In this document: positions 20,800-61,973 of the stretch, piece after piece | Numbering within the stretch: the first letter of the stretch is position 1 | Layout: the number at the start of each line of letters is the position of its first letter | Virus record (IMG/VR): IMGVR_UViG_3300009149_000001 | Coordinates: 1 to 64,000 of that record | Source: a virus | DNA: 64,000 nucleotides | Direction: 5' to 3' (one strand) | Made by a program: the position numbers and the translations under genes | Notes under the pieces: generated by a model | What the model was told of the DNA's origin: nothing | The model's input: only the letters and a program-made list of their open reading frames with translations | Databases searched by the model: none

Positions 20800-22157
20800 A
20801 ATTTTTGTATATATGATACTGTTAGACTTACAGGGTCATTTGTTGTACTCCCGTGATCATGGCTACCTCCTGTTCCCGTTGTATATGATGCTGAAGCACT
20901 GGGTGTTGGTGAAGTTAATGCGTGACTGTGTGGTCTCCATGAGCCACCACCTCCACTAGAACCATTTCCACCTGAACCACCAGCAGCAGTACTACCAGAA
21001 GTTGTATGGGTGTGACTACTAGACCCCGTATGTGTGTGAGTTGTAGCTGTATGTGTGTGAGTTGCAGCACCACCTTGTGTGCCTGGGTTTGTACAAGCAT
21101 TAGGTATTGTTCTGATATATCTATCCAATAGATTAGGAGTATTACAATTTCCATCGGCAATTCTAAATCCTGCCGGAACAGAAGAATTAACACCTGTCCA
21201 TAAACCAATTAACCCTGGTGAGACTCCAGGATTATGCAAACTAACACTGGTTTTTTTAATAACAGCTAACTCGTGATATTGTGGTAAATTGCAAGAATTA
21301 GCATGTTGATGTGCACCAGTACTACATGTTAATCCGCCAATAGTGGTACCGCTAACAGCACCAGACCCAGCTCCGTGTGCGTGACCACCGGTGATAGGCA
21401 TTGTGGCAGGATTATATCTCCACACACTAGTATTTGATGCGGGTCCAAAACATCCCACACTATGAGAATGGGATGAACCTGTGGCAGTGTGAGTGTGATT
21501 ACCATTAGAACTGTGTTGATGTGTAGCAGCCCCACCGGTAACTTGAGGATTAGTGCATGCATCTGGAACTCCTTTAATAATTTCATTGGATATATAATTT
21601 GAATTAAGAGAATAAGTAATTGGTATAGCAGAGATGGCTAAATTAGTATAAGCACTAACACCTGTTGGGATATGATTCAATCTCATACTAATTGTAGTGC
21701 TGTTCTTTATGATATGTCTAATTGTAATATTAGATGGTTCAATATTTTGTGTATCGTGAGTGTGTGCACCAGTACTACATGCTGTACTTACTGTGAATGT
21801 AGTTGATCCAGAAGTTTGATTGTGGGTATGGGCTGTACTCGAAAAGCCACTGAGCCCTGGACAACCTGTAAATGCCCCAGCGGGAGTACTTGATCCACCA
21901 GTATTAATGGTGTGAGTATGTCCTGGTGTAGGAGATCCAGCAGCGTGAGTATGACCAGCTACTGCAGTAGGTTCACAGTGGGTATTTGCACCAAGACTAG
22001 TACCTGGATTAGTACATAAGTTGGGAATATTTTTTGGATATTTAGCAAACAGACTACTTTCGTCTATAAATTCTCCTGGTAAATCTCCTGCGTTACCATC
22101 ATGTAATAATACTAAAGATGAAGGTACACGAGCTTGTCTAAAACTTCGAGATACTAA
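20796..22157 (-). CDS. His-rich tail fibre/needle protein with three tandem repeat units
   Basis: Three IPN.CTNP..GGA.TH.H...HxH repeats; frame open for 157 codons upstream of ATG 21686 with no ATG/GTG/TTG. Confidence 0.75.
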   Translation of the reverse strand, partial: LVSRSFRQARVPSSLVLLHDGNAGDLPGEFIDESSLFAKYPKNIPNLCTNPGTSLGANTHCEPTAVAGHTHAAGSPTPGHTHTINTGGSSTPAGAFTGCPGLSGFSSTAHTHNQTSGSTTFTVSTACSTGAHTHDTQNIEPSNITIRHIIKNSTTISMRLNHIPTGVSAYTNLAISAIPITYSLNSNYISNEIIKGVPDACTNPQVTGGAATHQHSSNGNHTHTATGSSHSHSVGCFGPASNTSVWRYNPATMPITGGHAHGAGSGAVSGTTIGGLTCSTGAHQHANSCNLPQYHELAVIKKTSVSLHNPGVSPGLIGLWTGVNSSVPAGFRIADGNCNTPNLLDRYIRTIPNACTNPGTQGGAATHTHTATTHTHTGSSSHTHTTSGSTAAGGSGGNGSSGGGGSWRPHSHALTSPTPSASASYTTGTGGSHDHGSTTNDPVSLTVSYIQKL

Positions 22158-36717: not shown

Positions 36718-38259
36718 TCAGTTTCCACCACGTCTATCTCCTCGTGTGTTATTGTTACGATCTTTTTGACCTTGAGATTGTTGGTCACTAGTTGGTGAAT
36801 CTTGTTTCTCACCTTTAAGTCCTGCTGCTATATCTTTATTAGTTTGACCACTTTGGTCGGCTACGCCTGCACCTGGGTTTTGTGTATCTTCAATCCATGT
36901 CTTCAAGTCTTCTTCTTGTTCTTCAGTAAGTGGATCTTTACCCATTACAGCTCTAATTTCAGATGTAGTAAATGATTTAGTGACTTGCATAGTTGCTGCA
37001 ATCTTTGCTAATTCTGTTCTATCTTTATCTAAGATGAGTCTAGTTTTTAATACAAGTCGTTCTACAACTTCTTCTTTAATACCTGGTTCAATCATCTGAA
37101 CATGACGTCTAACTAGAGCTTCATATTCTTGTTTAATAGTATCAAGGTAAATTTCAGCACGAAGTGCTAAGAATGAGGATGCTTGGTTAAGTGATGTAAA
37201 ACCACCGCCACCTGAACCAGCCCCCATTAAATTAGGAGGAGTACCAGTTGGGCCACCAATTAGTTCGTTGATTTGATTAATGATAGGTGATGGGTCGTTA
37301 TAGTTAGAGCTCTTTGGTTCTACGTAGGTAATTTCGGTATTCATACCGGTAACAAAGCCTTGATCAGCTGATCTATATTGATTAACTGCAGCATATCCAT
37401 TAATGGCAGCCTCTGCTGCGGTTTTTGCGGCAGCTAGTTTTTCTGCATGAGTTCCTTGGAATTTAGATGGATCAAATGGTGTTAAGTCTAATTTATGGTG
37501 TTCTCTAGGCATTGCTCTATTTCTCCATACTTGGTCATTTTGAATCAAGATTTGTTTCCACATCAAGATACTAATCAAAGAATTAATAGGTGCTGTTGAC
37601 CAAACATTAAAAGTCCATCGTCCTAGGTTATCTCTAATCCAAGATCTTTTATTATCAAAGGATACATGGAATACTCTATCCCATCTTATAATTTGGGTTT
37701 TAACATCAATCTTACCATCTTGTTCATCTACTGCATAATATTTAGGATCACTTATAACAAAGTCTCCGCCAGTTTCACCAATTTGAGATCTCTTATCAAC
37801 TGCTGAGATAACAAACATTGGTAATGGTACAAGATCTTCAATTCCTTTACCGAATTTAATTTGATCTACGGCATCTCCGTACTTCCAGAGATCTTTTGTA
37901 TATCTATAAAATAATCGAGGACCATTAAGTTTTCTATGTAGAGCGTTTGCAACTTTCATTGCTTTTCTTTCTGATGGTGTTTCTACTTTATCATCAACAT
38001 CTTCAGGTCTTAATGTAAAGTCACCAACTGCTTTTTGAACCATGATTGCCATGAGTTCAATTGCTGAGAACAGTCTCTCGTCCCCATTTACTAGATTATC
38101 TGCAAGTGTATATCTGTCTTTTGAATTTCGTAAATCTTTGGCTTCGTTTAATCGCCCACCAATAATAGATGCTGCTGTGATTGCAATAGGCTCTGTGGGT
38201 TTAGTTGATCGATCTATAGGGTCTGTCCTAAATGCTGCTTTAATCCAATCTAAGTTCAT
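36718..38259 (-). CDS. Portal protein
   Basis: 513 aa after TerL; LWKYGDA, VFHVSF, TSEIRAVMGKDPL. Confidence 0.9.
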   Translation of the reverse strand: MNLDWIKAAFRTDPIDRSTKPTEPIAITAASIIGGRLNEAKDLRNSKDRYTLADNLVNGDERLFSAIELMAIMVQKAVGDFTLRPEDVDDKVETPSERKAMKVANALHRKLNGPRLFYRYTKDLWKYGDAVDQIKFGKGIEDLVPLPMFVISAVDKRSQIGETGGDFVISDPKYYAVDEQDGKIDVKTQIIRWDRVFHVSFDNKRSWIRDNLGRWTFNVWSTAPINSLISILMWKQILIQNDQVWRNRAMPREHHKLDLTPFDPSKFQGTHAEKLAAAKTAAEAAINGYAAVNQYRSADQGFVTGMNTEITYVEPKSSNYNDPSPIINQINELIGGPTGTPPNLMGAGSGGGGFTSLNQASSFLALRAEIYLDTIKQEYEALVRRHVQMIEPGIKEEVVERLVLKTRLILDKDRTELAKIAATMQVTKSFTTSEIRAVMGKDPLTEEQEEDLKTWIEDTQNPGAGVADQSGQTNKDIAAGLKGEKQDSPTSDQQSQGQKDRNNNTRGDRRGGN

Positions 38260-38261
38260 TT

Positions 38262-39821
38262 TTAAAATCTTCCCATATAATATGATTGCACACCATTAGT
38301 ACTCAAGCGTGCTTCCTCTTGTTCTCTACGTACAAACGATATAAGCTGTGCAGCGGTGTCAGCCATGTCTTTGGACCCAGTGCGAGGGTGATCCACTTTT
38401 TGATTCTTGATAAGGAGTAATTCGTAAAATTCTTTGAAGAGATATTTGGATCTGACGACAGTTGCACGTCCAAGGTATAAGTCGTTTCTTGCGATGATCC
38501 AATCTGACAAGTTGAGGACGTGGTGTTCTGTGCGGATTGAGTCCAATCGAACAAGATCAAGGAGGGTATTGTGCAGGTAAATGTCGTACACGTAGGAAGT
38601 GACAGGGAAGACGGCAATGAGTCGTTTGATGATGTCGGCAACGTCATTAGTATTTATTTCTTCGCCCTTGGCTGCCTTAAACACTGTGGAACCTATTATA
38701 CGGACAGAATCATCTTGAGCATGATATCCTATTGATAATCCAAAAGCATCGTTCTTAATGGCAGGATCTACTGCTATATACCAATCTGTGTAATCTGGGT
38801 AAAGTCTTAGATCTAAACGAGATTCGTCAATTAGGGGGATAAATCCTTCTCTTGATTTAGGATCTGGTTCTCCTATGAATAAGTTGGTTAAAAAGAAGTC
38901 TTTCTCGATCTCCTCAAGTATTGCAGGATTGAAGAATGCCTCCTGCTCTAATGATGGGTTCGCACCAAAATCCCTGTCGAACGAAATAGGGTCTCTCTTT
39001 CTCTCAGCTGCGAGCGTTACTTTATCCATGTTAGGATTAAGATCCCATGTTGCTTTCCAAATTGGAATGCACCAAGCCCATTTCTCTTCTACAGCTTGAG
39101 CATGCAATGTTGTGATGAAATCTCCTTTATATTGGGGGGATGAAATAGCAACTCTAACATTCTCATTCCATTTAGTAAAAGTACCTGTGGATTTGGATAA
39201 TTTGAAGTAAACCTCTTTTGGACCATTACGAGCTGAATTATCTTGAAATGATGAAACTTCGTCTGCAACAAAGGATTTAATTGTTCTTCCTACGTTACCG
39301 CCTGTACTGCTACCTAAAGCCTTTAAGGTAATGTATTTAGGGAATTTAATGGTGTTATAGGTAGCTGTAGGGTTTAATGACATAAAGTATGGTGAATCCA
39401 TGATAAGTTCCTTTCCTCTTCTAAAGACTGTATCTAAGGCCTGAGTTTCGTTAGGTGCTACATTAACACACATGATTTCAGAGTTCTTTGCAATACCATA
39501 GTGTTCTTGAGGATTATCTAGAAATTCCAACCGTGCGATCTCATATAGACTAATACATGCCGCAATTGTTGTTTTACCTCCTCTCATCCCTGAAACGAAA
39601 ACTAGTTCAGATTTAATACGTCGTCCAGTCTCATCAAACTTGTAAAATGAACGTAAAATCTCTTTTTGAGATTCCCAGAGTTCCATACCAACACCTGCTG
39701 GATCTTCAAAGAATGCTACTACATCATTTGACCATTCTAACTTCTTAATTAATTTTTCACCCAGTGACAGTTTCTCGTATAGAGAAACATCACAAGTAAT
39801 ATCAAGACGGGTTGTTGTCAA
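38262..39821 (-). CDS. terL: Terminase large subunit
   Basis: GMRGGKT Walker A, VADE Walker B, ISSP, AVDPAIKND, DHPRTGSKDMAD. Confidence 0.96.
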   Translation of the reverse strand: MTTTRLDITCDVSLYEKLSLGEKLIKKLEWSNDVVAFFEDPAGVGMELWESQKEILRSFYKFDETGRRIKSELVFVSGMRGGKTTIAACISLYEIARLEFLDNPQEHYGIAKNSEIMCVNVAPNETQALDTVFRRGKELIMDSPYFMSLNPTATYNTIKFPKYITLKALGSSTGGNVGRTIKSFVADEVSSFQDNSARNGPKEVYFKLSKSTGTFTKWNENVRVAISSPQYKGDFITTLHAQAVEEKWAWCIPIWKATWDLNPNMDKVTLAAERKRDPISFDRDFGANPSLEQEAFFNPAILEEIEKDFFLTNLFIGEPDPKSREGFIPLIDESRLDLRLYPDYTDWYIAVDPAIKNDAFGLSIGYHAQDDSVRIIGSTVFKAAKGEEINTNDVADIIKRLIAVFPVTSYVYDIYLHNTLLDLVRLDSIRTEHHVLNLSDWIIARNDLYLGRATVVRSKYLFKEFYELLLIKNQKVDHPRTGSKDMADTAAQLISFVRREQEEARLSTNGVQSYYMGRF

Positions 39822-45869: not shown

Positions 45870-46550
45870 TTAAGTAGGTTCTTGGCCACGACAGGGCTGG
45901 ATTTAAGGCGTTGTCTATCTAAATAGCTCGGATGTTGTGAGTTCAGCGTTTCAGGGAGTTTTTCTATTTCTAGACCGAGAGTCACCTGAATCATCATCTC
46001 CAGCATAGAAATGCATTCCTATACCTTTACTATCAGGGCCGAGCCCGGTTCTTTCTCAATATCGAGGGATAATTCACGTTCACAGGTAATCACTCCCATT
46101 ACTAAACTTCTCGCCTCTGTCAGGATTTATAGGATGGCAACCCTATGAGTGTTTATGACTGATTAATTTCAACCTGATTTACTCAGATAATAGTAACTAA
46201 TTAATATGCGATATAGTAGCGGGATCCTATAGAAGGACGTTAGTCTTTATATGTATGGGTGAGTTGATGAAACCGACTTCCACACATGCTATCTCTCTAA
46301 GTACAGGTTTTGCCTGTAAGCATTCGGCTACGGGAGTTATCAACTTCACAACACCAAATCTAGAGGAACAACGTAACGTATAATATACTAGTAATTAATT
46401 CAATGAATAGCTTATGGCCATTAACCATACTTCTATGGCTTTTCACCATATGGACCCTTGAGACCCTTAAATATTGAGAAAAATCGTATACAAATGTGTG
46501 CCCTCAGCGACCTACGTTCCCTACTATGGTGAGGGGGATCGAGGGCAAAC
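45870..46550 (+). ncRNA. Candidate structured non-coding RNA region
   Basis: No ORF of 60 aa or more; helices TACAGG/CCTGTA, ATAGG/CCTAT, GAGTTGATGA/TTATCAACTT, TGCCCTC/GAGGGCA; G-U pairs favour the + strand. Confidence 0.45.
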
Positions 46551-46574
46551 CGGGGTATATAAACTTTTATTTTT

Positions 46575-46593
46575 AATAAGGTAATACCTTATT
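46575..46593. promoter_or_regulatory. Perfect 9-bp inverted repeat, candidate operator
   Basis: AATAAGGTA-A-TACCTTATT next to a minus-strand TATA box at about 46555-46565. Confidence 0.45.
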
Positions 46594-46636
46594 CTTTTAA
46601 GATTAAAATAAAAAAATAAAAAAAGATTATATTACC

Positions 46637-46906: not shown

Positions 46907-47246
46907 TAACTATAGTAAGTAATAAGGGTAATATAAACCGGTGTATTAACCCAACCTTCTTATAGTAAGTCGCGCGGCACCCATTATCTTTTCCTAATAT
47001 AAATGTTTCATCCATGTAGCCCCTCGCGCGTAGACACCCCCCTCAATACGACGGTCTATATAGCCCGGGGGGGTATAGAAGGTGAGGGTCTAGAGTCCCC
47101 TCCCACGGGTGCTTCTTTTTTGTCCCGGGTTTGGTTTCGGCTCCGATACTTTATCTAACCCGCGGTTCTATATGAATGGTAGTAACGGGAGCTTCGAGAC
47201 CCGGTCCAATACTACGGTATATATTAGGGAAGAGATTAGAGTAAGT

Positions 47247-47348
47247 ATGGAAGAGAAAGTTCAACTCACCGCAATGGAACAGTTCTTTGTGGGTGAGATA
47301 ATCGACATCGCGGTATTCGCGGAAGTTCAAATCGCCGAGGGCGATTAA
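47247..47348 (+). CDS. 33-aa acidic microprotein (cassette)
   Basis: Repeat motif TATA about 25 nt upstream; T12 tract after stop. Confidence 0.6.
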   Translation: MEEKVQLTAMEQFFVGEIIDIAVFAEVQIAEGD

Positions 47349-47415
47349 CTTTTTTTTTTTCTCTAAGTCCCCATGCAATACGACCATTCATATAACGAAA
47401 CAGATAAGATAGATT

Positions 47416-47574
47416 ATGAAATATCTCAACGATGTAGTAGCTTTTTATGAAGAGCTATTAAAAGATGTAGAAAAAGAAAAACTAGTAAGAGCAGTAGTAA
47501 TAGAAATGATAAATGATATTACTATTGAGAATGTTAGTTTTAAAAACTTAAGAAAAGATTTATTTAAAGAATAA
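47416..47574 (+). CDS. 52-aa microprotein (cassette)
   Basis: MKYLNDVVAFYEELL...; motif upstream, T tract downstream. Confidence 0.7.
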   Translation: MKYLNDVVAFYEELLKDVEKEKLVRAVVIEMINDITIENVSFKNLRKDLFKE

Positions 47575-47978
47575 ATTTTTTTTTTATTTTTTTTAGGTGT
47601 TTGTCGGGTGAAAAACTTTTGCCTCTGATTCTAATATCTACTTTCCCTTATATGAATGTTTAATCGGGTGAGGCCTTCGAAGACATGTCTTGTCCCCTCG
47701 CGGCGGGTGACTTGGACTTTTGTGAGTTGAGTGTGAGAAGGGGTGAGTGGAAGGTGACTCCACTCGTTTTCACCTTTTCCCCTTTTCGTGGTGAGGCGGC
47801 TGCTCGGGGTGAGAATCTGTGTCTCACCACGGTCCTAGGACACTTCCGTGTCGTCGCACTCCGTTCCTCATTAGGATCTATTATCTAATCACCGTACCGT
47901 TATATGAATGGTAGTATTGGAGTTGAGTCCGGGGCCTCCTTTCCTACCAGTTATATTAGGGAAGAGATAAGTGATAAT

Positions 47979-48113
47979 ATGACACAACGAATAAGTCAAA
48001 GTCGATATGAAGTAATAATCTTCGGAAAAGTCGATGAAACGTATAATGAAAAATATTATACGATAGGTGGAGTAAAGAATAGAATTCGAGAATTAGAAAA
48101 ACTCGATTTCTAA
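47979..48113 (+). CDS. 44-aa microprotein (cassette)
   Basis: MTQRISQSRYEV...; motif upstream, T tract downstream. Confidence 0.7.
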   Translation: MTQRISQSRYEVIIFGKVDETYNEKYYTIGGVKNRIRELEKLDF

Positions 48114-48252
48114 TTTTTTTTTAATTTTGTGAGGTGAGTTCGTTTAGCCACTGATTCTAATATGTACGAAGGATAATATATATGTTTCATCTGAGTCGGG
48201 GGCCGGAACTCCAATACTACCAGTTATATTAGGGTAGTGTGTAGTATAAGGT

Positions 48253-48429
48253 ATGAGAGAAAGATATGAGTTGAGTAGAGAACTCCTTCACACCCTTCAG
48301 GGTGTTTGGGATGAAGAGGGTGAGAGTTTCTCCTTCGTTCTCTTCGTACTCTCTCAACTCCAGAAGGAGGATAAGTTAAGTCTCCGACACGACGAAGAGA
48401 AGAACGAGTGGATCGTAAAGATTCCTTAA
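48253..48429 (+). CDS. 58-aa microprotein (cassette)
   Basis: MRERYELSRELL...; motif upstream, T tract downstream. Confidence 0.7.
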   Translation: MRERYELSRELLHTLQGVWDEEGESFSFVLFVLSQLQKEDKLSLRHDEEKNEWIVKIP

Positions 48430-48559
48430 CCTTTTTTTTTAATTTATCGGGTTGAGTTTTTTCGACTCTGATAGATAAGAAGATGAAAGGGTAATATAAA
48501 TGTTTCATCAGGGGAGCCCCCAGCCTACGGTTTATATAACCCAGGCGGTTAGTGTAAGT

Positions 48560-48751
48560 ATGAGAGATGAAAGCCTCCTATGGCAACTCAAGAAGCGAAA
48601 CGCAGCAAAGACACATTGTCTCCGCGGCCACGAGTTGCCAACACATCGCGATAGCCACGGCCGTCGCTTTTGTAAGAAGTGCGATTGTATCCGCGCCAAG
48701 CGAGCAAACGCAATCGTTCAAGCCAACAAGCACAAGTTGTGGTTTGAATAG
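48560..48751 (+). CDS. 63-aa zinc-binding microprotein (KTHC.RGH...CxxC)
   Basis: Motif usually found appended to HNH endonucleases; cassette structure. Confidence 0.72.
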   Translation: MRDESLLWQLKKRNAAKTHCLRGHELPTHRDSHGRRFCKKCDCIRAKRANAIVQANKHKLWFE

Positions 48752-48814
48752 TTTTTTTTTTTACCTAAGTCAGCAATTACTACCATTCATATAGAGCTAA
48801 TGTGTATGTATATT

Positions 48815-48961
48815 ATGACACAAATAACAGATGGAGAAGATCTTTTGTTCCTCGCAAAACTCGCACAGCGAGATGGCTGGAGCAAAACAAAATTCGCAAC
48901 TTTCGCAGGCATCCACCCGACGGCCGCTGGATACCTCTATGACACGGAGGCTATCGCATGA
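48815..48961 (+). CDS. 48-aa HTH-like microprotein (cassette)
   Basis: GWSKTKFATFAGIHP; motif upstream. Confidence 0.6.
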   Translation: MTQITDGEDLLFLAKLAQRDGWSKTKFATFAGIHPTAAGYLYDTEAIA

Positions 48962-49248
48962 GCGATGCGTGTGTCTTCGGAAAGTGTCGGAGGTGCGGAC
49001 AAGTGAAGTGCTCCCACGCGGACAAGACCATGGAGGGTGACCTATGACGTGGTATCATTGGCAAGGCAAGTGGTATTCAAAGTCCACACTGGACGTGAAT
49101 GGACTTAGCACGTTTGGGTTGTCGAGGTCACGAGTGTGATACTTGGTGGTTGGCTGCTCCTGGCACTCGTGGTTGGGGTTGCCGCCTGGATGGCGATGTG
49201 AACGGGTCCAATACTACCACTTATATTAGGGAAGGTGATAGTGATAGT

Positions 49249-49392
49249 ATGGTGAGAGCAACAATCACATTCACACTCGAGTATCCCAATGACGCACCTA
49301 TGTCAATTCTCGAAAGTGAAGCAGATGAAATGCAACAAGCACTCCAAGACGAGTACGAGGTTGAGGTAGACACTGAAGTCTGCTTCAACTAA
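49249..49392 (+). CDS. 47-aa acidic microprotein (cassette)
   Basis: MVRATITFTLEYP...; motif upstream, T tract downstream. Confidence 0.68.
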   Translation: MVRATITFTLEYPNDAPMSILESEADEMQQALQDEYEVEVDTEVCFN

Positions 49393-49593
49393 TTTTTTTC
49401 TATAGGCAAGCGCAACATTCATATTAGCCTTTCACCTTCTTATCTAGTTGAGTTAAATTTTTTTAAAAAAAAAAAATTCATAAAATCCTATAAGTCCCCA
49501 CTGGGCTTTCCCCGCGGAAAGGGCGGTGAGTCTAGTATATAAGGGGCGCCGCAATCCTACCAGTTATATAACGGAAGCGATATATTATATTTA

Positions 49594-49872
49594 ATGACAA
49601 ATCAAAAAGCAAGCAGCGACGAAAAAATCTTAGAATCTTTTAAAGATTTAAAAGATCAAGTAGTCGCTCCTAATGCAAATAGCTTAAGCGAAGTTATTAT
49701 GAAGGTATTCAAAGAATATCCTACTACTAGCTTCACTCAAGGAAATTTTGCAGCTAAGCTTTCTAAGAGAACGCAACATATAAATCATGTGTTAACAGAT
49801 CTTAGAAAGAAGAACCTTATTATAAGGGAAGGTTCTGCAAAACAATATTATTTCAGATTAAATTCTGAATAA
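49594..49872 (+). CDS. wHTH protein, paralogue 2
   Basis: Closely similar to 46637..46906 (KVFKEYP.TSFTQ, KRTQHINHVLT). Confidence 0.85.
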   Translation: MTNQKASSDEKILESFKDLKDQVVAPNANSLSEVIMKVFKEYPTTSFTQGNFAAKLSKRTQHINHVLTDLRKKNLIIREGSAKQYYFRLNSE

Positions 49873-50114
49873 TTTTTTTTTATTTTTTTTAAAGTCTCAA
49901 TCCGACCATTTATATTAGCCTTTGTGATAATAAGAGTGGCGTTTAGAAGTTTGTTCCGCGTTTCCCCCCGCATAGTAGTGGGTAATACCTTTATTCCTTA
50001 CTTTAATTAATTTTAATTGATAAAATCCTATAAGTCCGCCCCCGCCCGTCGCGTAGGACTTGGCGGAATGCCCGCATACGCGCTGCCCGCCGTGCCCGTG
50101 CTGCCCTTGCCCTT

Positions 50115-50975
50115 GGGGCGGGCACTACATAAGCAGTTTTGGTCGGCCCTAAAATGTATATTCTTTGGGCGGGCCCTACAATAGGGGGTTTTGGTGGACT
50201 AAAATGGGGCGGTCACTACAATAGAACTCTTCACCGGCCCTAAGGTTCCTTTGTCGGGCCCTACAATAGCAGTTTGGACGTGGCCAAAAGTGCTTTACCG
50301 TCCCCCTGACCGACCGGGTCACTATATAGCAAACACAAGACATATATGAACCACAGCAGGCCTATACGCAGCTATATAGAACTATATAGTTAAGGCGGGT
50401 AAAGTGTTCCACCGATTAGTCAGAGGAAAATATTTATATAGTAGTTTTGTTAATAATATGTAATGACAAATCAAGTAAAAGTTCCAATGGGTCCAGTTGA
50501 GGCAAAACCTGCAACTAAGACTATTGGGGCAAAGAAAGGCGTAGTAGAGTCATTTGAGGACTTAAAGGGACAACAAGTACCAACCGGTGCAGAAATGTCT
50601 ACAGGTTCTAATGGGGCTTTAATCGTCAAAATCTTTCAGGCATATCCTGACACTGTATTCACACAGAGACAGTTCGTGGACAGATTGGACATTTCAAATC
50701 CGTTCGTCAACCACATTCTACACGGGCTAATGAAAAAGGGCATTGTGAGCAGAGTCGGCAGTCCTAGAAAGTACTATTATTCATTAGTAGTCAAATCGGT
50801 CCAATAGGGCCTTTTTTTTATTTACGGTAGAGGGGGCACCTAGGGCATTAGTTATTCCTACTTAGCGGACACTACATAAGGGATTTTGGTGTGGCCAGAA
50901 TTCATTGTGGTTTATAGGGGCAACAGATGTCTAGTAAGGGCGAGCAATACAACAGCGATTTCATTGTGGCCAAAA
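50115..50975 (+). repeat. Iteron-like direct repeats CGG(G/T/A)C(A/C)CTACA(A)TA(A)G
   Basis: Copies at about 50123, 50174, 50214, 50259, 50320 and 50870, after a GC-rich TGCCC-repeat patch. Confidence 0.65.
50463..50807 (+). CDS. wHTH protein, paralogue 3
   Basis: YPDTVFTQ...VNHILHGL.KKGIVSRVGSPRKYYY. Confidence 0.85.
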   Translation: MTNQVKVPMGPVEAKPATKTIGAKKGVVESFEDLKGQQVPTGAEMSTGSNGALIVKIFQAYPDTVFTQRQFVDRLDISNPFVNHILHGLMKKGIVSRVGSPRKYYYSLVVKSVQ

Positions 50976-51081
50976 ATTACTATTTTTCCCCCGATTATCA
51001 ATATAATAATATTTATATATTAGTAAAAGAATATATAGTAATGACAAATAGAAATAGAAAAGTCCTAAGGAGCACCAAGGC

Positions 51082-51324
51082 ATGCTGAACGATTACGTTA
51101 TAGATCAAGCAATGTTTGACTGTGGCGAGATTATCAGTTATGCAATGGTAATGCGTAGAGAGCTAATAAAGGCAATGAAAGATACTACAGATCTTGCAGA
51201 TTCAGTCTGTGAGATCATGGATGACTATCTTCCGGCCATTATGAGTACGGCTATGAAAATCAATGCAGAGCACCAAGAGGACATGAAAAACCTACTAGAA
51301 CACAAGTGTGAGGGCAACCTATGA
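51082..51324 (+). CDS. Hypothetical protein
   Basis: ORF in the early region. Confidence 0.55.
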   Translation: MLNDYVIDQAMFDCGEIISYAMVMRRELIKAMKDTTDLADSVCEIMDDYLPAIMSTAMKINAEHQEDMKNLLEHKCEGNL

Positions 51325-51686
51325 TCACTGTGGACGGTATGAGTCAAGCTGACTTAATCAAGTCGTTTGCTGGCTTAGAACAAACCGAGTTACCTACTAG
51401 AGGTGAAGTTAAATCACTCAAGTCACAGGGTAAAGTCAAGTCAAAGCGTCGTATTGCGATGATTCCAAAGCACAGAAAACCATCACAGGTTTCTGGTCAC
51501 AATTTGAACAAACGAATTGAGGCAGCAGACAAGCTATGGAAGAACACATGGATGTCACAACGAGGTGTCTTATTAAGACACGTTGGAGTCCAGTTCGACG
51601 AAGAGATGACAGCTTTAGCAAACTGTGTCGAGTGTCCCCAAATCGTGGTAGACTTTTTTATGAACCACGGAGGTCTAAAGAGATGA
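51321..51686 (+). CDS. Hypothetical protein carrying the N-terminal SFxxL motif of the wHTH paralogues
   Basis: DLIKSFAGLEQ. Confidence 0.6.
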   Translation: MITVDGMSQADLIKSFAGLEQTELPTRGEVKSLKSQGKVKSKRRIAMIPKHRKPSQVSGHNLNKRIEAADKLWKNTWMSQRGVLLRHVGVQFDEEMTALANCVECPQIVVDFFMNHGGLKR

Positions 51687-51753
51687 CCGATGAATATCAA
51701 GTTAGATCAGACATGGAACAAGTTAGAGCTATCATAGCAATGATAACTATTCC

Positions 51754-52074
51754 TTGTCTAAAGAGGAGGGAGGCATGAAGAGCTTTCCTAGTAAGTACAA
51801 AGGCAAGTGCAATACTTGCAATGGACCTATTCCAGCGGGCACCATGATCAACTGGTCCCGTGAATTAGGGGCATTCCATGTCAATTGTGAAGTCATTATT
51901 GATGGCAAATCACAGCAAACATTGGCAGATGAATGGGATCGTGAACACGCCAACGAACCAACTTGTTTAGATCGTTTCGAGGCAATGAGAGTCGATCCAG
52001 TGTACAAAGATGTACCAGAAGATGCAATCTATACCTATGCATCCCAGGATACGAGGAGGAATCCATACCGATGA
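51754..52074 (+). CDS. Zinc-binding hypothetical protein
   Basis: SKYKGKCNTC...I..G...HVNC; likely start at MKSF. Confidence 0.6.
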   Translation: MSKEEGGMKSFPSKYKGKCNTCNGPIPAGTMINWSRELGAFHVNCEVIIDGKSQQTLADEWDREHANEPTCLDRFEAMRVDPVYKDVPEDAIYTYASQDTRRNPYR

Positions 52075-52666
52075 CTCGTATCATGTGTGGTATTCATGGG
52101 GAGGTTGAGTCAACTACATGGGAAGGGGAACAAGTATGTCCTTGGCATCAAAGAGTGTCACAGTCCGAAGAAGGACCTGTCTTCATGTACGAAGAGTTCA
52201 ATCAGGATGGGGAAGAATGGTAGCACCACCCCTTAACATAGGAGAGAGAGAGGAGGACGGAGTCGTCCTTCAATGACCTTCAAACTTTTTTCTTATCATT
52301 TCATGCGAGTGTTCGAAGGAACATTCATTTTCACTAATGACGAGTTAGAGGAGGTGGGACTAGGATAGACGAACCATCACGAGTCGAATATAGTGGATAT
52401 GGCTACGACCACCACGGTATAGCAGTTACAGTAACACTTGAGGACATTGGCAAATATGCTGAAGAAGTCAAGAAAGAACTAAAGGAGACACATCCTGAGG
52501 GGTACACTGTAGCTACCATGATAGCTCAAACCGGGCTTTTCAAGTTACAAGATAACTTACCGTCGTGGTTAGACATAGACACGTCGGACTGTATGGAAAC
52601 ATACAGTGTCGACTGACGGCCTACTTTATATACATAGGGCAGGTAAATCTTGCCTAAATTTCAGTA

Positions 52667-52963
52667 ATGGAAGACACAGAATTACGAGACGCATACTGCG
52701 ACCTACTAAAGGCGATGTGTCACTTCAAAATCCAGGACAACAACTTAGTCATTACAATTGACTATAGTGATCCAGGGTTTGCGGAGTGGGACTATCTCAA
52801 ACTCACAGACAAGGCCTACAAGGAGACCATGAAAATGCTTTCAGAAGAAGGCAAGAAGATCTCTGATTGGGTCAGTGAGAACTTTAGAGTCAAGTATGTC
52901 GTACGCAAACCATGTAACTGTCATGTACATCATGACGAAGAATGTGACTCACTATCAATGTGA
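52667..52963 (+). CDS. Hypothetical protein
   Basis: ORF with upstream TATA. Confidence 0.55.
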   Translation: MEDTELRDAYCDLLKAMCHFKIQDNNLVITIDYSDPGFAEWDYLKLTDKAYKETMKMLSEEGKKISDWVSENFRVKYVVRKPCNCHVHHDEECDSLSM

Positions 52964-53452
52964 GCTACACCTTTTTTTCCTTGTCAAATATAACAGATCA
53001 TACAAGAGAGTGTCTTTGTCAAGATTGTGATAATGCTAAGGCTACGTTCTCATACGAACAGAGTCATGATGCAGATCCAATACTAATGGCAGTAGCACTG
53101 TTGTTAGATACACTTGATGTCAACAGCTGTACAGTTGTGGGCTATCGAGGCAATCATTGGACTATCGAGGATAGCAGAGGATGACTAGTAGTACATTAGT
53201 CAAACCAGTCTTCCCCGAAATTCCAGACAAAGACGCAAAAGAATTACTTGTCGAACTCTATGTCACTAGTGGCAGAAAGAGAGGAGCAAGACACACAGCT
53301 GACGGTACCAACTGTCCTAAGCATAGGAGAAACTGGTATCTCAAATCCAAAGGAATGCCTACGGGCTTCTAATTTCTTTTTTTCCTAAGTGTGGCAGTAG
53401 ATAAATATTTAAATATAATAAAAAGAAATAATAGTATCAATAAATAATACTT

Positions 53453-53605
53453 ATGAGCGAAGCACAAACGTCATTATTCGTTAAGTTAAGTTCAGATAGG
53501 CATGTAAAACTAAAGACCTATACAGCTCTAAACGGTCAATCGATGGTACAAGTCATCGAGGACTGGATAGACACATTGAACTTTAACTTTAAGAAAAATG
53601 ACTGA
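53453..53605 (+). CDS. Ribbon-helix-helix protein (50 aa)
   Basis: TSLFVKLSSDRHVKLKTYTALNGQSMVQVIEDWID; upstream TATA. Confidence 0.75.
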   Translation: MSEAQTSLFVKLSSDRHVKLKTYTALNGQSMVQVIEDWIDTLNFNFKKND

Positions 53606-53990
53606 AATAATAAGGGCTAATGCGGAATATTCATTAGGTCCAGGAGATTACAGCAGGTGTGAGTATTGTAAAAACAATGCTAAACACACTCATGGCAGTG
53701 ATCCTCAACCTATCAATATGAAACCATTAAGCAGATACAAAATGATCAGTGAGCTTAAGAAGTTTTGTGATGAAGGCGAACAAGCCTTCTTCAAAAAATC
53801 AGAAGAGTTCGAAGGTCAGGAATCTGGAACAGGTATATGGACTGGCGGTGAAGGAAGTCCATCCAAAGATGAGATGGGCTTGTGGAACTACTGGGGAGAA
53901 AACCATCCAGAGATTGATCAATTCCTCGAGACGAGGGGTTGGTACCAAGAATGGTATGATGCAGGAACAGTTATGCTGTATCCCATCTAA
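53598..53990 (+). CDS. Hypothetical protein
   Basis: HPEIDQFL..RGWY.EWYDAGT motif common in viral proteins; T-tract terminator. Confidence 0.65.
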   Translation: MTEIIRANAEYSLGPGDYSRCEYCKNNAKHTHGSDPQPINMKPLSRYKMISELKKFCDEGEQAFFKKSEEFEGQESGTGIWTGGEGSPSKDEMGLWNYWGENHPEIDQFLETRGWYQEWYDAGTVMLYPI

Positions 53991-54411
53991 CCTATTTTTT
54001 CTTGCAAACATATATAGACAGTACGGGTAATGATACAGGTATCATTATCCACAAACCAGAGCCTACTATGTATACAATGGTGAATGGATATCGCATCAAA
54101 AATTGGTGTGGATTCGGTTCAAAGTGTCCAGATAGGTGTCTCTTTCTCTCACACCCAGAGGTGTTGGAGGAAATATTCGATTCAGAGCGTAACAACCTCT
54201 AATCACTTTTTTACTTATGGAAACTAAACACGCACAAGCTATCAGGGAGACACAATGGTGTCTTCAAGAGGCATATAAGGAAGCAATACGAGTCAGTGGT
54301 ATAACAGATTGGTCTGATCACGAACAAGAAGACAAGGTGTTATTAAATAGACACGTTGAAGTCTTGCAAGTAGAAATTGCAAAGATGCTTCAAACAGCAC
54401 TTCACAGTTAA

Positions 54412-54630
54412 CATAGTTCCCAAACTTGAGCAAGTTCTACGACGACAGTCGTTACTAAGAACCTCTACGATCGAGTCGGAACGGTTAAACAACGTATTAG
54501 GAACAAATCCGGTATAAACTACAAGACACTATCCCTGTATGTAATACAGATAAGGACAAAGTTATGCCTAAACTTCCGAAGAAGTTCCACTCCAGAGTTA
54601 AGCGATGAAGGAGTAGGGCCGGAGATTACA
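54412..54630 (+). ncRNA. Candidate structured RNA, about 220 nt
   Basis: AACTT/AAGTT, AACTTC-CGAA-GAAGTT, CTGTAT/ATACAG, ACTCC/GGAGT, TCCGG/CCGGA; no ORF. Confidence 0.5.
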
Positions 54631-54633
54631 GTA

Positions 54634-54936
54634 ATGAATATATCAGACATTATAGACGAGTGCTATAAGTGTGAACCATATCGCAAGCTTGAGAGAGCTT
54701 GTCTAAATGGTCCTGTGAAATACGAATATTCGTGTTCAGAGGAAACACAAGAAGCACTCGAAGAAGCTGATCCAACAGGTAGAGCGTTGGAGGCAAAGTG
54801 TACAAACTTAGCAGAAGTACAGGCAGCAGATGCAATCAGTGAAGAAGCATTGCACAAGCATGTTCTCGTTTGTACAGAGCATGGATGTACTCTATTAAGA
54901 GAGTATAGACACGAGCTAAAAGTTCCGGGTTATTAA
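54634..54936 (+). CDS. Cys-containing hypothetical protein
   Basis: ORF in the early region. Confidence 0.55.
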   Translation: MNISDIIDECYKCEPYRKLERACLNGPVKYEYSCSEETQEALEEADPTGRALEAKCTNLAEVQAADAISEEALHKHVLVCTEHGCTLLREYRHELKVPGY

Positions 54937-54988
54937 CCCACATTTTTGATGAACGTATCAACGATTCATAACGGAGGATACTAACGGT

Positions 54989-55372
54989 ATGAAAGTACCT
55001 GCAGCATTCTTCGAAGTTAGCCCTCACTGGGCTAAAGCAATTAGTGAAGCAAAGACAGTAAAAGAACTATCTGGCAATAAAGATAGTGGCGGATCAGTCC
55101 GAGAATTTGGCGATCGCTCTATTCAAAATGCACAGAGCTGTATAGTCGGCGAAGCACACCACAATACATTCAAGTGGGGTAGCTGCCAAGAATGCGATGC
55201 ATTCAGCAGTCGATTCGGTGACATTCTCACAGGAGAATTAGACACCAAAGGCAATAGAAAACAACAGTTAGTTCAAAATATCACTGACTTCACATCTCAT
55301 TGGAGAGAGGAGCACAATCCTTTAGTTCACTTAGACATTGAAACTGAAGATGAGCTTCCAGTCATACCTTGA
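54989..55372 (+). CDS. Hypothetical protein
   Basis: CIVGEAH...C..C...H motif. Confidence 0.6.
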   Translation: MKVPAAFFEVSPHWAKAISEAKTVKELSGNKDSGGSVREFGDRSIQNAQSCIVGEAHHNTFKWGSCQECDAFSSRFGDILTGELDTKGNRKQQLVQNITDFTSHWREEHNPLVHLDIETEDELPVIP

Positions 55373-55647
55373 ATAGTGTGACATCCAAACTTTTTATTAA
55401 AAGTTTCGAGACATTGCTTAAAGGTTATAACGACTCATACGGTCGAATGACAGATGACAACATGACAAAACTTGTTCCAACCGTCAAGAAAGACGGTGAC
55501 AACTATAACATATGGAATACAGATGATCGAGTAATGGGTCACGTGTTAATCGAATTAGTCATAGCTGCAACAAAACATATGTGCGGTGGCTCATACTATG
55601 TCGATTATAACCAAACAGCCAAGAGATTGGAAATCCATATTTTTTAA
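55369..55647 (+). CDS. Hypothetical protein
   Basis: TTGA-coupled ORF. Confidence 0.55.
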   Translation: MNSVTSKLFIKSFETLLKGYNDSYGRMTDDNMTKLVPTVKKDGDNYNIWNTDDRVMGHVLIELVIAATKHMCGGSYYVDYNQTAKRLEIHIF

Positions 55648-55649
55648 GG

Positions 55650-56290
55650 CCCAGAGTACTAACACTACCTGGAATGTTTTAAAGAAAGACACAGCGACCT
55701 CGACTTGATTTCGAGCGAGAGTTCCTGGGGAGACAGAGTAAGCTAGTCAAATGATTAGTCCTACCCCTTCCGAATATACAATGAGCGATCTAGTTCAGCC
55801 AAAAACATACCTAACTCTGATCATAAACGGATAATGCCGCATGAACAGCAGTACACACTAGTGGGATAAGTTGGTTGCTTCCCATACAGGCAGAATGACC
55901 TCGTTTGAGTATAATAGAGAATGGTCAAGTGAGTTAAGGGCATCTATGCCACCGTCGATTAGGACCTTAAACCGACGATATTAAATAGATAGCGTGCATA
56001 CTCTTACAAAAAGGCGCGTACGGCGAATCAGTAAATACTTTTGTATGGATGTAATAGATTCAGTCAGGAGGTTGAAGGCACATCACCAACAACCTTAGGC
56101 TGGGTCGATGATTTATAGTCATTAAGATGTAGCAGTTGCAACTGTGCGAACTGAGATAACTTCTTTCGTGGCAGGTGTATTAAAGCAGAGGCCTTGTGGA
56201 GCGGGGTATGAGCAACAACAACTCATAATCCGTGTCGAAACATGGTTGCTGGGGAGATCACCTTTCACCACTTCTATTAAACACCTTTAA
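55650..56290 (+). ncRNA. Large ornate structured ncRNA candidate, about 640 nt (ROOL/GOLLD-like)
   Basis: More than 10 helices readable by eye with + strand G-U pairs; no credible ORF; more GC-rich than the flanks. Confidence 0.68.
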
Positions 56291-56343
56291 CCTATTATGG
56301 ACATTAGATAAATCTTTATATAATATAAAAATTAATAATACTT

Positions 56344-56637
56344 ATGAAAGAAAAATCCGAGAGCTCGGTAATAGCTTCTTTCAAAGAACTAGAGGGTCAA
56401 ACACCTGTTGTGTCACAATCAGCAGGCCAATTGATTCTATCTATTGCAAAGAAAGCACCTAAAACAGCTTTCAACCAAAAGATGTTCAGAGAAAAAATGC
56501 TAGAGATTGAAGGAGCTGCAACAAGCAATCCTGCAATTAATGGAGCCTTAAGAAAATTAGCCGATGGTGGTCTTATCGAAAGAGAAGTCCAAGGGAAGCA
56601 TGTCTTTTACAGACATATTAAAGCAACAACAAAATAG
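56344..56637 (+). CDS. wHTH protein, paralogue 4 (divergent)
   Basis: VIASFKELEGQ...FNQK...SNPAINGALRKL...LIER...FYR. Confidence 0.8.
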   Translation: MKEKSESSVIASFKELEGQTPVVSQSAGQLILSIAKKAPKTAFNQKMFREKMLEIEGAATSNPAINGALRKLADGGLIEREVQGKHVFYRHIKATTK

Positions 56638-56684
56638 TCAAAGTCAAGTAAAACTTAAACTTTGAATTATTTTTTTTTTTAATT

Positions 56685-56939
56685 ATGAGCGTTAAAAATA
56701 ATATTAGCATATTGGGTGTTGGATCCATTATTATTGGTCTTATATCATGGTCATTTAGTCTATGGGTAGAAGGTTTCTACTTCATACTAATTGGTCTTGC
56801 TATGGCAGTAATCCAGATGTTCTGGGGTACTTCAGGCAAATTCCAAGAAGTATTGGATAAGCACACAGGTGCATATGATCATGAACTTAGTAACAGTCCA
56901 AAGGACAAACCAACAAAGCCACAGAGGAGACAGTGGTAG
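56685..56939 (+). CDS. Two-TM membrane protein
   Basis: Two hydrophobic helices; coupled to the ATPase. Confidence 0.65.
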   Translation: MSVKNNISILGVGSIIIGLISWSFSLWVEGFYFILIGLAMAVIQMFWGTSGKFQEVLDKHTGAYDHELSNSPKDKPTKPQRRQW

Positions 56940-57907
56940 GTTTTCTTAATATAGGTACAAGGTTACCTGAAGAGTATATTACAAGACGATGTGCCATACT
57001 GGCAAAAGTCGATTCTGGTAAAACATATACTGCAGGTAAGATTCAAGAGCAGATGGCCAAGAAAGGTTTACCCTTTGTGGTCATAGATCCAATGGGAGCT
57101 CATTGGGGTATCAGGACTAAATATCCTGTGTTAATCCTAGGTGGTGCTCATGGAGATCTTGAACTTCAGCCTGGGGATGGAAGGTACATAGCCGGTTTGG
57201 TTGTGGCCCAAAATCTCACTTGCATCCTTGATATCAATGAGTTTTCAAAGGACAATCAGCAAAGATTTGCAGCTGACTTTGGAGACGAACTTTTCCTATT
57301 GCACAAGAAGACATCTAGTCCAAGACATCTATTCTGGGAGGAAGCCGATATATTCGCACCCCAGAGAGGAACTGCTATGTCATTGCAGGTCTTGGATACC
57401 TTAGTTAGACGGGGACGGCAATTCGGGCTGGGCAGTACACTTATCACCCAGCGTCCAGCCGTTCTCAATAAAGACGTATTAACACAAGCAGACATTTACT
57501 TATTCCTAAACATTATCGAGGAGGGAGCAATCAAGGTAGTAAAAGATCTACTGTCAGTTGTATCCAAAGAAGAGCGTAAGATGTACATAGACAGTATGAA
57601 AGCCTTCAAAAAAGGCGAGATGTTGTTATATAGTCCAGCTTGGTTGCAGAAGATTAAGATCTTCCAAGGAGCAAAGAAGGAGACATACCACGCAGGAGCA
57701 ACACCGGTATATGGGGAGACTCAAAAGATTCCCACTCTATTGAAATACGAAACAATGCATATTAAAAATGCGTTGAATAAATTAGCAGGTAATGAGGAAG
57801 AGTGTAACAGCAGGCCAATCATTGAGGAGAAAGACCTTAAAGCCTTGAAACCGGTTATATTCATTTCAGCAGCTATAATAGCAGTAACAATGGCGATGAT
57901 ACTATGA
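56933..57907 (+). CDS. HerA/FtsK-family ATPase (DUF87/DUF853-like) with C-terminal TM anchor
   Basis: AKVDSGKT, VIDPMG, EEADIFAP, RRGRQFG, ITQRPA; hydrophobic C-terminus. Confidence 0.9.
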   Translation: MVGFLNIGTRLPEEYITRRCAILAKVDSGKTYTAGKIQEQMAKKGLPFVVIDPMGAHWGIRTKYPVLILGGAHGDLELQPGDGRYIAGLVVAQNLTCILDINEFSKDNQQRFAADFGDELFLLHKKTSSPRHLFWEEADIFAPQRGTAMSLQVLDTLVRRGRQFGLGSTLITQRPAVLNKDVLTQADIYLFLNIIEEGAIKVVKDLLSVVSKEERKMYIDSMKAFKKGEMLLYSPAWLQKIKIFQGAKKETYHAGATPVYGETQKIPTLLKYETMHIKNALNKLAGNEEECNSRPIIEEKDLKALKPVIFISAAIIAVTMAMIL

Positions 57908-58215: not shown

Positions 58216-58419
58216 CTTTAACTTGGAAAATAAAAAATTATTTGAATTGGTCGTCGTAAGACGAGTAAGAGATGGCAAACTTAAATGTGAGTTTGAAACA
58301 GAGTTAACCTGTGATGATAATGTTGATGTATTCAATGTTATCGAGCAGCTTAACAATTCTATCACGAGATGCTTCAATGTATTACGTGAAAAGCCAATAA
58401 CAGATTTACAGTAAACGAT

Positions 58420-58680
58420 TACAAGGCAGGATCCAGGTCTCAGACCTAACGTAGGATATACGGAAAACCCAGTGCCGAAAATATCATAAGTTTACAAAGG
58501 AGTCGGAAGAAAGCATGCATTGATAGAGTTCCACACGAGCCCCTTAGTGCGTATCCTTTCGACCCTTTATTCCAGTTAACAGACGGTAGTATTAATTACA
58601 CTACCAGTTGACAGTAGATCTGACTAGTCATGATGACGCATTTAGCTATGTAAGCCGGTACATCCCACTACTCAGACTAC
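58420..58680 (+). ncRNA. Candidate structured RNA, about 260 nt
   Basis: AGGTC/GACCT; long stem AAAGG.GTCGGAAG/CTTTCGACCCTTT; GGTAGT/ACTACC inside GTTAAC/GTTGAC. Confidence 0.52.
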
Positions 58681-58961
58681 TATATTACAATGAACTATTT
58701 AATACAATGCGCTTATGGTGACACAGAATGTGATCCAGAGGGCAATGAACCAAAACAGATGTGTGATGAACACAGCAGGGATTGGCATGACGCAAGAGCG
58801 GAGTCGTACAATGACCTTGATTAGAGGCCTAAAATGTTAGCCATAGGTAACGGCGAGAAGTGTCCTTGGTGTGATTTAATTGTCACTGAGGATACAGATG
58901 TTACTACACACATGACGGAGAATCATAGGACAGAGTTTATGAAGGAGGTCTTCGGAAACTA

Positions 58962-61318: not shown

Positions 61319-61973
61319 TTGTATACACCAACCAATTGTTGATAGTGAATCAGATGCTAGAGTCTTTTGCAAATATTGTGGTGCGGAGTGGTTTCACAGA
61401 TGAATGTTAATATGATAATGCAAGGACTAGCTCAGATGCAAGATGACATCTATGCCTTTTGGTTAGATGACGCTAACTCCCAACAAGATAAAGACCAAGC
61501 TATACGTGACTTTGGTAAGTGCTTGGATACTATTTTAGATTTAACCTCGCCCGCTACGATTGCAAAGGAAGTTGTTATACAGACCTTGTTAGATAAACAG
61601 AACAAAGGTAAGTTGGCTGCCCTGAAGGAGGAGTTAGGATGAGTACTAATTGTTCTAAATGCCATGAGTCTATTTATTTTTCAGCACCTTATTACAGGAT
61701 AGTGACCGAGTATGAAGGTACTTTTAAAACCTCGACCACGAATGAATACCAACATAAGAAATGTTATGAGGACAAGACATGAGGGGACTTTGCCAATTTT
61801 GTTTTTCATCTAATGAAGAGGTCACCATACATAAGGGAATGCCATCATGCCTAAAATGTGGTAAGGATAAAATTTAATATGCCTTTATCTAGATATTTTA
61901 GATGTGAGAGATGCCAGATTAACTTTGGTAGTATGGAGCAGTTAGGTCAACATAAAAACCAGGAGCACTCAGA

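Follow-up and report, generated by a model that had tools for sequence, protein, structure and literature searches.

Does a gene-free stretch of about 700 nt in the genome of a tailed virus encode a non-coding RNA (ncRNA), and if so, of what kind? The stretch lies in a 74,198-bp IMG/VR virus record with direct terminal repeats, of which the first 64 kb, referred to here as the window, were analysed. An initial annotation had read it as an ornate ncRNA of about 640 nt in an archaeal virus, either ROOL-like or of a new class.

Genome setting and extent of the stretch

The window encodes a family B DNA polymerase and a tape-measure-like protein, as well as the following two proteins:

36718-38259, portal
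38262-39821, large terminase

Among deposited phage genomes, the best matches of the polymerase are haloarchaeal tailed viruses (~25% identity). Many genes in the window are preceded by a TTTATATA box ~29 nt 5' of the ATG, a spacing that corresponds to the archaeal pattern of leaderless transcription. Given the polymerase matches and this promoter pattern, the assignment to an archaeal virus made at first is reasonable.

Positions 55648-56343 (~700 nt) contain no ORF of more than 49 aa on either strand, and the ORF-free stretch is thereby borne out. It starts directly 3' of the stop codon of a 92-aa ORF (55369-55647) and stops at the ATG of a wHTH gene (56344-56637, 97 aa). The rest of the genome had been described as densely coding, but it is not free of gaps: five others of at least 300 nt, without an ORF of at least 50 aa on either strand, are present in the window:

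21687-22020, ORF-free gap
46007-46636, ORF-free gap, equal in length to the stretch studied here
52277-52605, ORF-free gap
58415-58875, ORF-free gap
61666-61973, ORF-free gap

These gaps may contain further non-coding elements.

Two signals were found at the borders of the stretch:

55636-55641, + strand, T6 tract that closes ORF 55369-55647 and likely terminates the + strand operon upstream
56314-56343, + strand, TTTATATA box (56314-56322) located ~29 nt 5' of the wHTH ATG

Oligo-T is an archaeal termination signal. Since the T6 tract likely terminates the upstream operon, an RNA made from the stretch probably needs its own start. There is no canonical TTTATATA box between 53413 and 56314, the nearest upstream TATA box on the + strand being that at 53408, and no promoter was identified for the RNA. 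The box-to-ATG spacing of the wHTH gene is identical to that at 50433, 51012 and 48531, and the wHTH genes of two related loci described below (L067 and L061) are preceded by similar promoter sequence. Because the wHTH gene has a separate TATA promoter, the gap is not the leader of that gene. The stretch contains no bacterial-type terminator and has no paralogue elsewhere in the window, and blastn against 50,697 phage records gave no match.

Downstream of the wHTH gene, positions 56933-57907 encode a HerA/FtsK-type ATPase (PF01935) with 603 homologues; its relatives in bacteria, at ~40% identity, are longer "HerA-like/DUF853" proteins. Since a canonical large terminase and a portal are present, this HerA-like ATPase is probably not the packaging motor.

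Coding potential was evaluated with a related strain, introduced in the next section. Three candidate small ORFs of the stretch carry mostly non-synonymous substitutions (4 of 5, 3 of 4 and 3 of 5), and one of the strain's substitutions destroys a small-ORF start codon. Moreover, tblastx among the gaps of the window, L067 and L061 revealed no protein-level similarity. The stretch thus shows no coding constraint and, judged from these comparisons, is non-coding.

RNA-library contigs from the stretch

Parts of the region 55400-56700 occur in 11 public runs, and contigs of four of these were placed on the window: X2 (seawater DNA), X3, X4 and X6 (soil DNA). In X4, a marine RNA-seq run, contigs extend over 55886-56120 and 56103-56252 at depths of 11 and 5, and the flanking genes between 55000 and 57000 are without contigs. 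X3 comes from a second study and is labelled metatranscriptomic, yet is flagged "probably DNA"; it contains one 373-nt contig (55889-56261) at a depth of 13.8, the flanking-gene pieces having ~3. Hence, depths of 11 and 14 in X4 and X3 compare with 0-3 on the flanks. All three contigs are wholly inside the stretch, have no loose ends, and are ~97% identical to the window. They also have the same 11-12 differences from it in common and therefore represent one related strain present in two studies. Three more runs from one of the two RNA-labelled studies contain small shares of the stretch. Small shares of it in soil, sediment and seawater runs carry no information on habitat.

The contigs define the following segment:

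55886-56261, + strand, segment seen as RNA and minimum extent of the transcript (X3 and X4 contigs; contig ends and strand not exact)

Thus, at least positions 55886-56261 (375 nt) appear as RNA, at a level far above that of the neighbouring genes. Coverage by marine metatranscriptomes, which the initial annotation had named as a check, was therefore obtained in the form of these contigs, although they show neither the strand nor the true ends of the RNA, and one of the two runs is the one flagged as probably DNA. Positions 55840-55892 are highly variable among strains, which alone could break the assembly there, and the lack of RNA contigs over 55648-55885 is no evidence of silence.

The stretch also contains two direct repeats, at 55687-55702 and 55888-55903 (AGRCA..GACCTCG), and at 55721-55733 and 56245-56257 (GTTSCTGGGGAGA). 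The first copies of both frame a 47-nt hairpin, and the second copies lie, to within a few nt, where the RNA contigs begin and end. The repeats could be end-defining motifs, or this could be chance.

Parts of the candidate RNA and natural variants

The sequence comparisons and predicted folds divide the stretch into the following parts:

55648-55885, + strand, 5' third of the gap with predicted hairpins at 55692-55727, 55743-55758 and 55818-55849, and P1
55862-55884, + strand, hairpin P1 (UGGGA, 13-nt loop, UCCCA)
55851-55957, + strand, cross-lineage conserved core detected by blastn (P1, G-rich linker, AU.ACCUC and UAGAGAAUG)
55893-56045, + strand, invariant block of 153 nt, identical in the window and the X3/X4 strain and unstructured by thermodynamic prediction (z +0.56 for 55886-56039)
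56040-56150, + strand, variable hairpin-rich module with, in the minimum free energy (MFE) fold, a closing helix of 56040-56055 with 56135-56150
56057-56106, + strand, long hairpin H1 with inner helix 56068-56096
56107-56123, + strand, hairpin H2
56168-56268, + strand, 3' domain, forming a long irregular hairpin in which 56168-56177 pairs with 56259-56268 as the closing helix

The 5' third may belong to the RNA as its 5' part, form an element of its own or serve as a promoter region. Within it, an 85-nt block (55665-55749) is matched at 100% identity by a contig of a soil metagenome, with adjacent parts of that run differing by 6-13%; this is a second block under high constraint, located beyond the segment that is supported by RNA. 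In runs X2 (seawater) and X6 (soil), P1 has seven substitutions and one insertion in its loop and a single substitution in its stem. The 3' domain, for which the MFE and centroid folds agree, contains the helix UAUGAG/CUCAUA and the hairpin CCGUGU-CGAA-ACAUGG. Its positions 56172-56261 (90 nt) are identical in the X3/X4 strain, and the G>A change at 56171 converts a G-U pair to A-U.

Evidence on covariation is drawn from that strain, from two strains known in part and from two distant lineages. Twelve substitutions separate the X3/X4 strain from the window; 11 of them fall within 56046-56171 and 10 within 56046-56152. In the MFE fold of 56040-56270, computed from the window alone, seven pairs are kept and one is broken, and two sites are unpaired. 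In one of the kept pairs both bases change (G56071-C56093 to A-U); the others show one-sided shifts between Watson-Crick and G-U pairs, mostly of the type that is expected for the + strand (A>G and C>U, giving G-U). On the structure of a covariance model of 56040-56152, named R1 (113 nt, 40 pairs), five pairs with one-sided changes are kept, one has a double compensatory change (56071/56093) and one is broken. The probability of such pair-keeping is about 0.01-0.05 (1.1-1.5% of random-placement trials were as good), and it is significant on one of three spans. In an energy test, the strain variant did not differ significantly from random mutants carrying the same substitutions.

A core shared with distant relatives

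A metagenome scan with the neighbouring HerA-like ATPase provided the two relatives L067 and L061, besides short contigs. Their ATPases are 47% (L067) and 50% (L061) identical to that of the window, the range for relatives being 47-52%. The gene order in L067 is the same as in the window: a homologue of ORF 54989, a gap of 1,085 nt, the wHTH gene, the ATPase gene and a homologue of ORF 57904. L061 retains the wHTH and ATPase part of this order. With blastn, window positions 55851-55957 align to L067 positions 2940-3042 (64% over 108 nt, E 3.5e-4), and L067 positions 2850-2990 align to L061 positions 296-432 (68% over 147 nt, E 8e-10). A core of ~110 nt thus recurs at the same gene position in two distant relatives.

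P1 is found at the same relative place in the three lineages, formed by other base pairs and so preserved through compensatory changes: UGGGA/UCCCA in the window, UAGGA/UCCUA in L067, a G-C to A-U double change, and GUG-U-AAG/CUUCAC in L061. Next to it on the 3' side are the G-rich linker, the AU.ACCUC motif, which is invariant in the three lineages, and UAGAGAAUG, which is present in two. L067 and L061 have in common a further 10-bp hairpin with two G-U intermediates. The 3' hairpin module of the window was not found in L067 or L061, either by sequence or with model R1, the L061 element ends ~60 nt past the core, and the L067 gap is split by a 59-aa ORF (3131-3310) whose ATG is preceded, at a distance of 7 nt, by a strong Shine-Dalgarno site (GGAGGTGA). 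This ORF has no relative in the window or the other loci compared and belongs to no Pfam family. Since the 3' module was not detected, the L061 element is short and the L067 gap is interrupted, any family formed by these elements would share a small core and have a periphery specific to each lineage.

MAFFT alignments of the three lineages yielded no usable consensus with RNAalifold, and no strand-specific stability was seen in the L067 gap. An nhmmer search with the three-lineage core found no further copies. IMG/VR contains ATPase relatives of at most 44% identity, none with a similar gap; GTDB genomes contain only bacterial ATPases, at most 43% identical; and DNA-pattern scans of IMG/VR gave chance matches or none. 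Closer ATPase homologues do exist (P0002-P0010, 66-81% identical, on contigs of up to 69.9 kb).

A non-coding RNA or an untranslated spacer

As the stretch shows no coding constraint, its RNA contigs are confined to it, its substitutions tend to keep pairs, and its core is conserved in synteny, we favour, with some reserve, the reading that the gap encodes a previously undescribed ncRNA of an archaeal-type tailed virus on the + strand. Of the new class first suggested, there remains a probable new virus-encoded ncRNA, to which these four lines of evidence point, but it is smaller and less proven than was claimed. The core and its place, after a gene of the 54989 type and before the wHTH and HerA-like ATPase genes, are kept in the relatives. 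The 153- and 90-nt invariant blocks, together with a core that is kept at 47-52% ATPase identity, argue for selection on the sequence itself.

The same observations bear on another reading, which we consider unlikely. The stretch could be a cis-acting untranslated spacer without a role in trans, and its RNA a nuclease-resistant remnant of operon read-through (a long 3' UTR) or of regulatory transcription across the operator-promoter of the wHTH and ATPase genes. The invariant blocks and the core shared with distant lineages run counter to this, as do the T6 tract at the end of the upstream ORF and the lack of X4 contigs on upstream genes. A spacer would nevertheless account for the missing promoter, the nearest upstream + strand TATA box being that at 53408; stable hairpins would protect a 3' fragment; the stretch is located among early, regulatory-looking small genes and wHTH regulators; and its folding, described next, is not exceptional. 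If the RNA were such a stable UTR fragment, the finding would be an ordinary one.

Folding and the strand of the RNA

The helices that were listed initially are all present, to within 1 nt. They include CTCGA/TCGAG (55699/55711), CTAGTC/GATTAG (55743/55753), TGGGA/TCCCA (55862/55880), TGACC/GGTCA (55896/55923), AGGTTG/CAACCT (56069/56090) and AGGTGT/ACACCT (56173/56282). Fold z-scores were computed against dinucleotide shuffles, with the following results:

55648-56300, whole stretch, + strand z -1.66, - strand z +0.35
55648-55885, + strand MFE -65.2 and z -3.59, - strand z +0.45
55886-56039, + strand z +0.56
56040-56270, + strand z -2.68, - strand z -0.73

Two of the three parts therefore fold better than their shuffles, namely the 5' and 3' thirds, but their values lie within the range of the neighbouring coding DNA, and the middle part and the whole stretch do not stand out. 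In 78 control windows of 235 nt from the + strand of neighbouring, mostly coding DNA, the mean z was -2.11; values at or below -2.68 were reached by 30% of these windows and values at or below -3.59 by 17%. A scan with 120-nt windows gave a mean z of -1.03 for the gap versus -1.29 for the neighbours, with about equal strand asymmetry. Hairpin 56057-56106 alone is locally exceptional (z -5.6 on the + strand versus -0.8 on the - strand). Because neighbouring coding DNA reaches the same z values, thermodynamics is neutral and speaks neither for nor against a structured RNA. The supposed ornate fold is only weakly supported, and an ornate RNA of ~640 nt is unproven: the RNA seen covers the 3' 375 nt, and the folding energy is not above that of the neighbouring coding sequence.

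With respect to strand, G-U pairs had been taken to indicate the + strand, and the energies agree: for 56040-56270, the MFE is -72.6 kcal/mol on the + strand and -50.5 kcal/mol on the - strand, a difference of 22 kcal/mol. The contigs themselves give no strand, and the TATA box of the wHTH gene (56314-56322) is nearly palindromic and also reads as a box on the - strand, from which a divergent or antisense RNA running leftwards could start. Such an RNA is improbable. Besides being 22 kcal/mol weaker, the - strand fold has a z of -0.73, and the single substitutions in helices mostly keep pairs on the + strand only. Moreover, the - strand has a T5 tract (56012-56008) in the middle of the contigs, which run across it, whereas the + strand has no T5 inside the RNA, and the contigs end 33-42 nt before the predicted - strand start.

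Possible mimicry of the 16S rRNA 3' end

The motifs of the RNA raise the possibility of an anti-Shine-Dalgarno mimic or sponge. The G-rich linker and AU.ACCUC repeats, and a 3' CGAA-loop hairpin that is followed by GAUCACCU, would imitate the 3' end of 16S rRNA, and the RNA would bind mRNAs at their Shine-Dalgarno sites, or else a factor specific for the 3' end of rRNA. At 56230-56266, the CGAA tetraloop hairpin and then UUGCUGGGGAGAUCACCUUU resemble helix 45 and the GAUCACCUCC 3' end of 16S rRNA. AU.ACCUC is among the few columns that are invariant in the three lineages, L061 having AUCACCUC, and the motif occurs twice in the window (55696 and 55897) and twice in L067; in addition, AGGAG/GAGGT words are enriched ~5-fold 5' of ORF starts in the genome. 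Mimicry is nonetheless quite improbable: GATCACC occurs at chance frequency in the window, ACCUC of L067 and L061 pairs locally with GGGG just upstream, the 3' CACCU of the window is paired with AGGUG (56173-56177) in the MFE fold, and no significant complementarity to other parts of the genome was found.

A further reading, that the RNA is the mRNA of one or more micro-ORFs or of a decayed gene, is very improbable. Micro-ORF units are numerous in this genome, and the 59-aa ORF in the L067 gap looks real, but the protein that it encodes has no relative in the window, the lineages have no similarity at the protein level, and the small-ORF substitutions are mostly non-synonymous (4 of 5, 3 of 4 and 3 of 5), with a start codon lost.

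Comparison with known RNAs

The Rfam 15 covariance models gave no match at gathering score in the window and L067. In 55400-56500, with E up to 10, only four chance-level matches (E 3-7) were obtained, and there was no Rfam match to group I/II introns, RNase P RNA, SRP RNA, tmRNA, 6S, OLE, HEARO or IMES. The ROOL-like nature proposed at first is not supported: cmscan against Rfam at E up to 10 returned neither ROOL nor GOLLD nor, beyond chance level, any family, and the resemblance to ROOL 5' ends that was suggested along with it is dropped. Genes for GOLLD frequently have tRNA genes as neighbours, and ARAGORN finds none in the window. As the defining models fail to match, the stretch is not a member of ROOL or GOLLD. 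We give almost no credence to its being even a distant relative, since the likeness lies in general features (a large gene-free viral stretch with many predicted helices), whereas no model matches, tRNA genes are not nearby, and ROOL and GOLLD are large ornate RNAs described from bacteria and their phages (PMC5737381; 10.1101/2024.12.08.627333). What the candidate has in common with them is being a viral non-coding RNA of several hundred nt whose role and protein partner are unknown; it differs in its archaeal-type virus, its smaller size (375 nt shown, at most ~640), the lack of nearby tRNAs and the lack of a demonstrated multi-domain covarying architecture.

Weinberg et al. reportedly found in 2009 that marine metatranscriptomes are rich in IMES and other orphan RNAs. 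The candidate resembles them in having RNA contigs in ocean data far above the neighbouring genes, but it does not match the Rfam IMES models, and its genomic home, a complete 74-kb viral genome, is known.

Phage phi29 encodes a structured RNA, the pRNA, which acts together with an ATPase of the FtsK/HerA type. Here too, a stable structured RNA would be encoded by a virus, and the order of ncRNA, wHTH and HerA-like ATPase is conserved; however, this virus has a canonical terminase and portal, and there is no likeness in sequence or structure.

Archaeal C/D box sRNAs are 50-70 nt long and have a box C (RUGAUGA), a box D (CUGA), boxes C' and D', and guides of ~12 nt. Region 55748-55821 has a box C-like AUGAUUA and a box D CUGA at 55751 and 55819, and AUGAUU(A/G) is also found 5' of the core in L067 (2773) and L061 (135). 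In contrast to C/D box sRNAs, box C lacks its second GA and the C'-D spacer measures 28 nt rather than ~12, and with 18.7 bits against a threshold of 80 (E = 7), the region falls outside the class. This C/D-like part is located outside the RNA-supported segment.

In the literature, we found no ncRNA of archaeal tailed viruses described. To our knowledge, large viral non-coding RNAs (ROOL, GOLLD and pRNA) are rare and are known from bacterial phages.

Possible role of the RNA

If the gap encodes an ncRNA, as we favour, the RNA would be stable, structured and trans-acting, and would be made with the early/regulatory gene block. Its folded 5' and 3' domains would frame and protect the sequence-constrained, largely unpaired central segment, which would be its working surface. 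The invariant, unfolded centre overlaps the sole part that is conserved across lineages and therefore points to a sequence-specific binding surface. This surface would most likely bind a viral or host protein, for which the RNA might act as a scaffold or decoy.

We tentatively propose that archaeal tailed viruses have a new family of abundant RNAs, ~380-640 nt in length, with folded ends and an invariant unpaired core, encoded at a fixed position beside wHTH and HerA-like ATPase genes and seen in ocean metatranscriptomes; on the evidence available, this is possible rather than probable. If true, archaeal viruses would thereby gain, according to the searches made, their first described class of large structured ncRNAs. 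The candidate combines a complete viral genome, natural variants and apparent high environmental RNA expression, and would thus be a tractable entry to the role of such RNAs. A conserved unstructured centre with variable hairpins around it suggests a binding surface with which partners could be fished.

Other observations on folding

A "processing stem" of 55860-55885 with 56250-56272, with excision of the segment in between or a circular RNA, was considered. The duplex has a z of -1.9, and better partners exist elsewhere in the genome; this model was dropped because the flank duplex is within the chance range.

The early-gene region upstream of the stretch (window 47000-55400) folds well beyond dinucleotide shuffles throughout on the + strand, with a mean z of -2.1 for 235-nt windows and extremes of -6.5 at 53721 and -5.7 at 54561. 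Positions 54641-54800 are strongly structured on both strands (z about -6). The strong folding of this region perhaps reflects many terminator hairpins between micro-genes.
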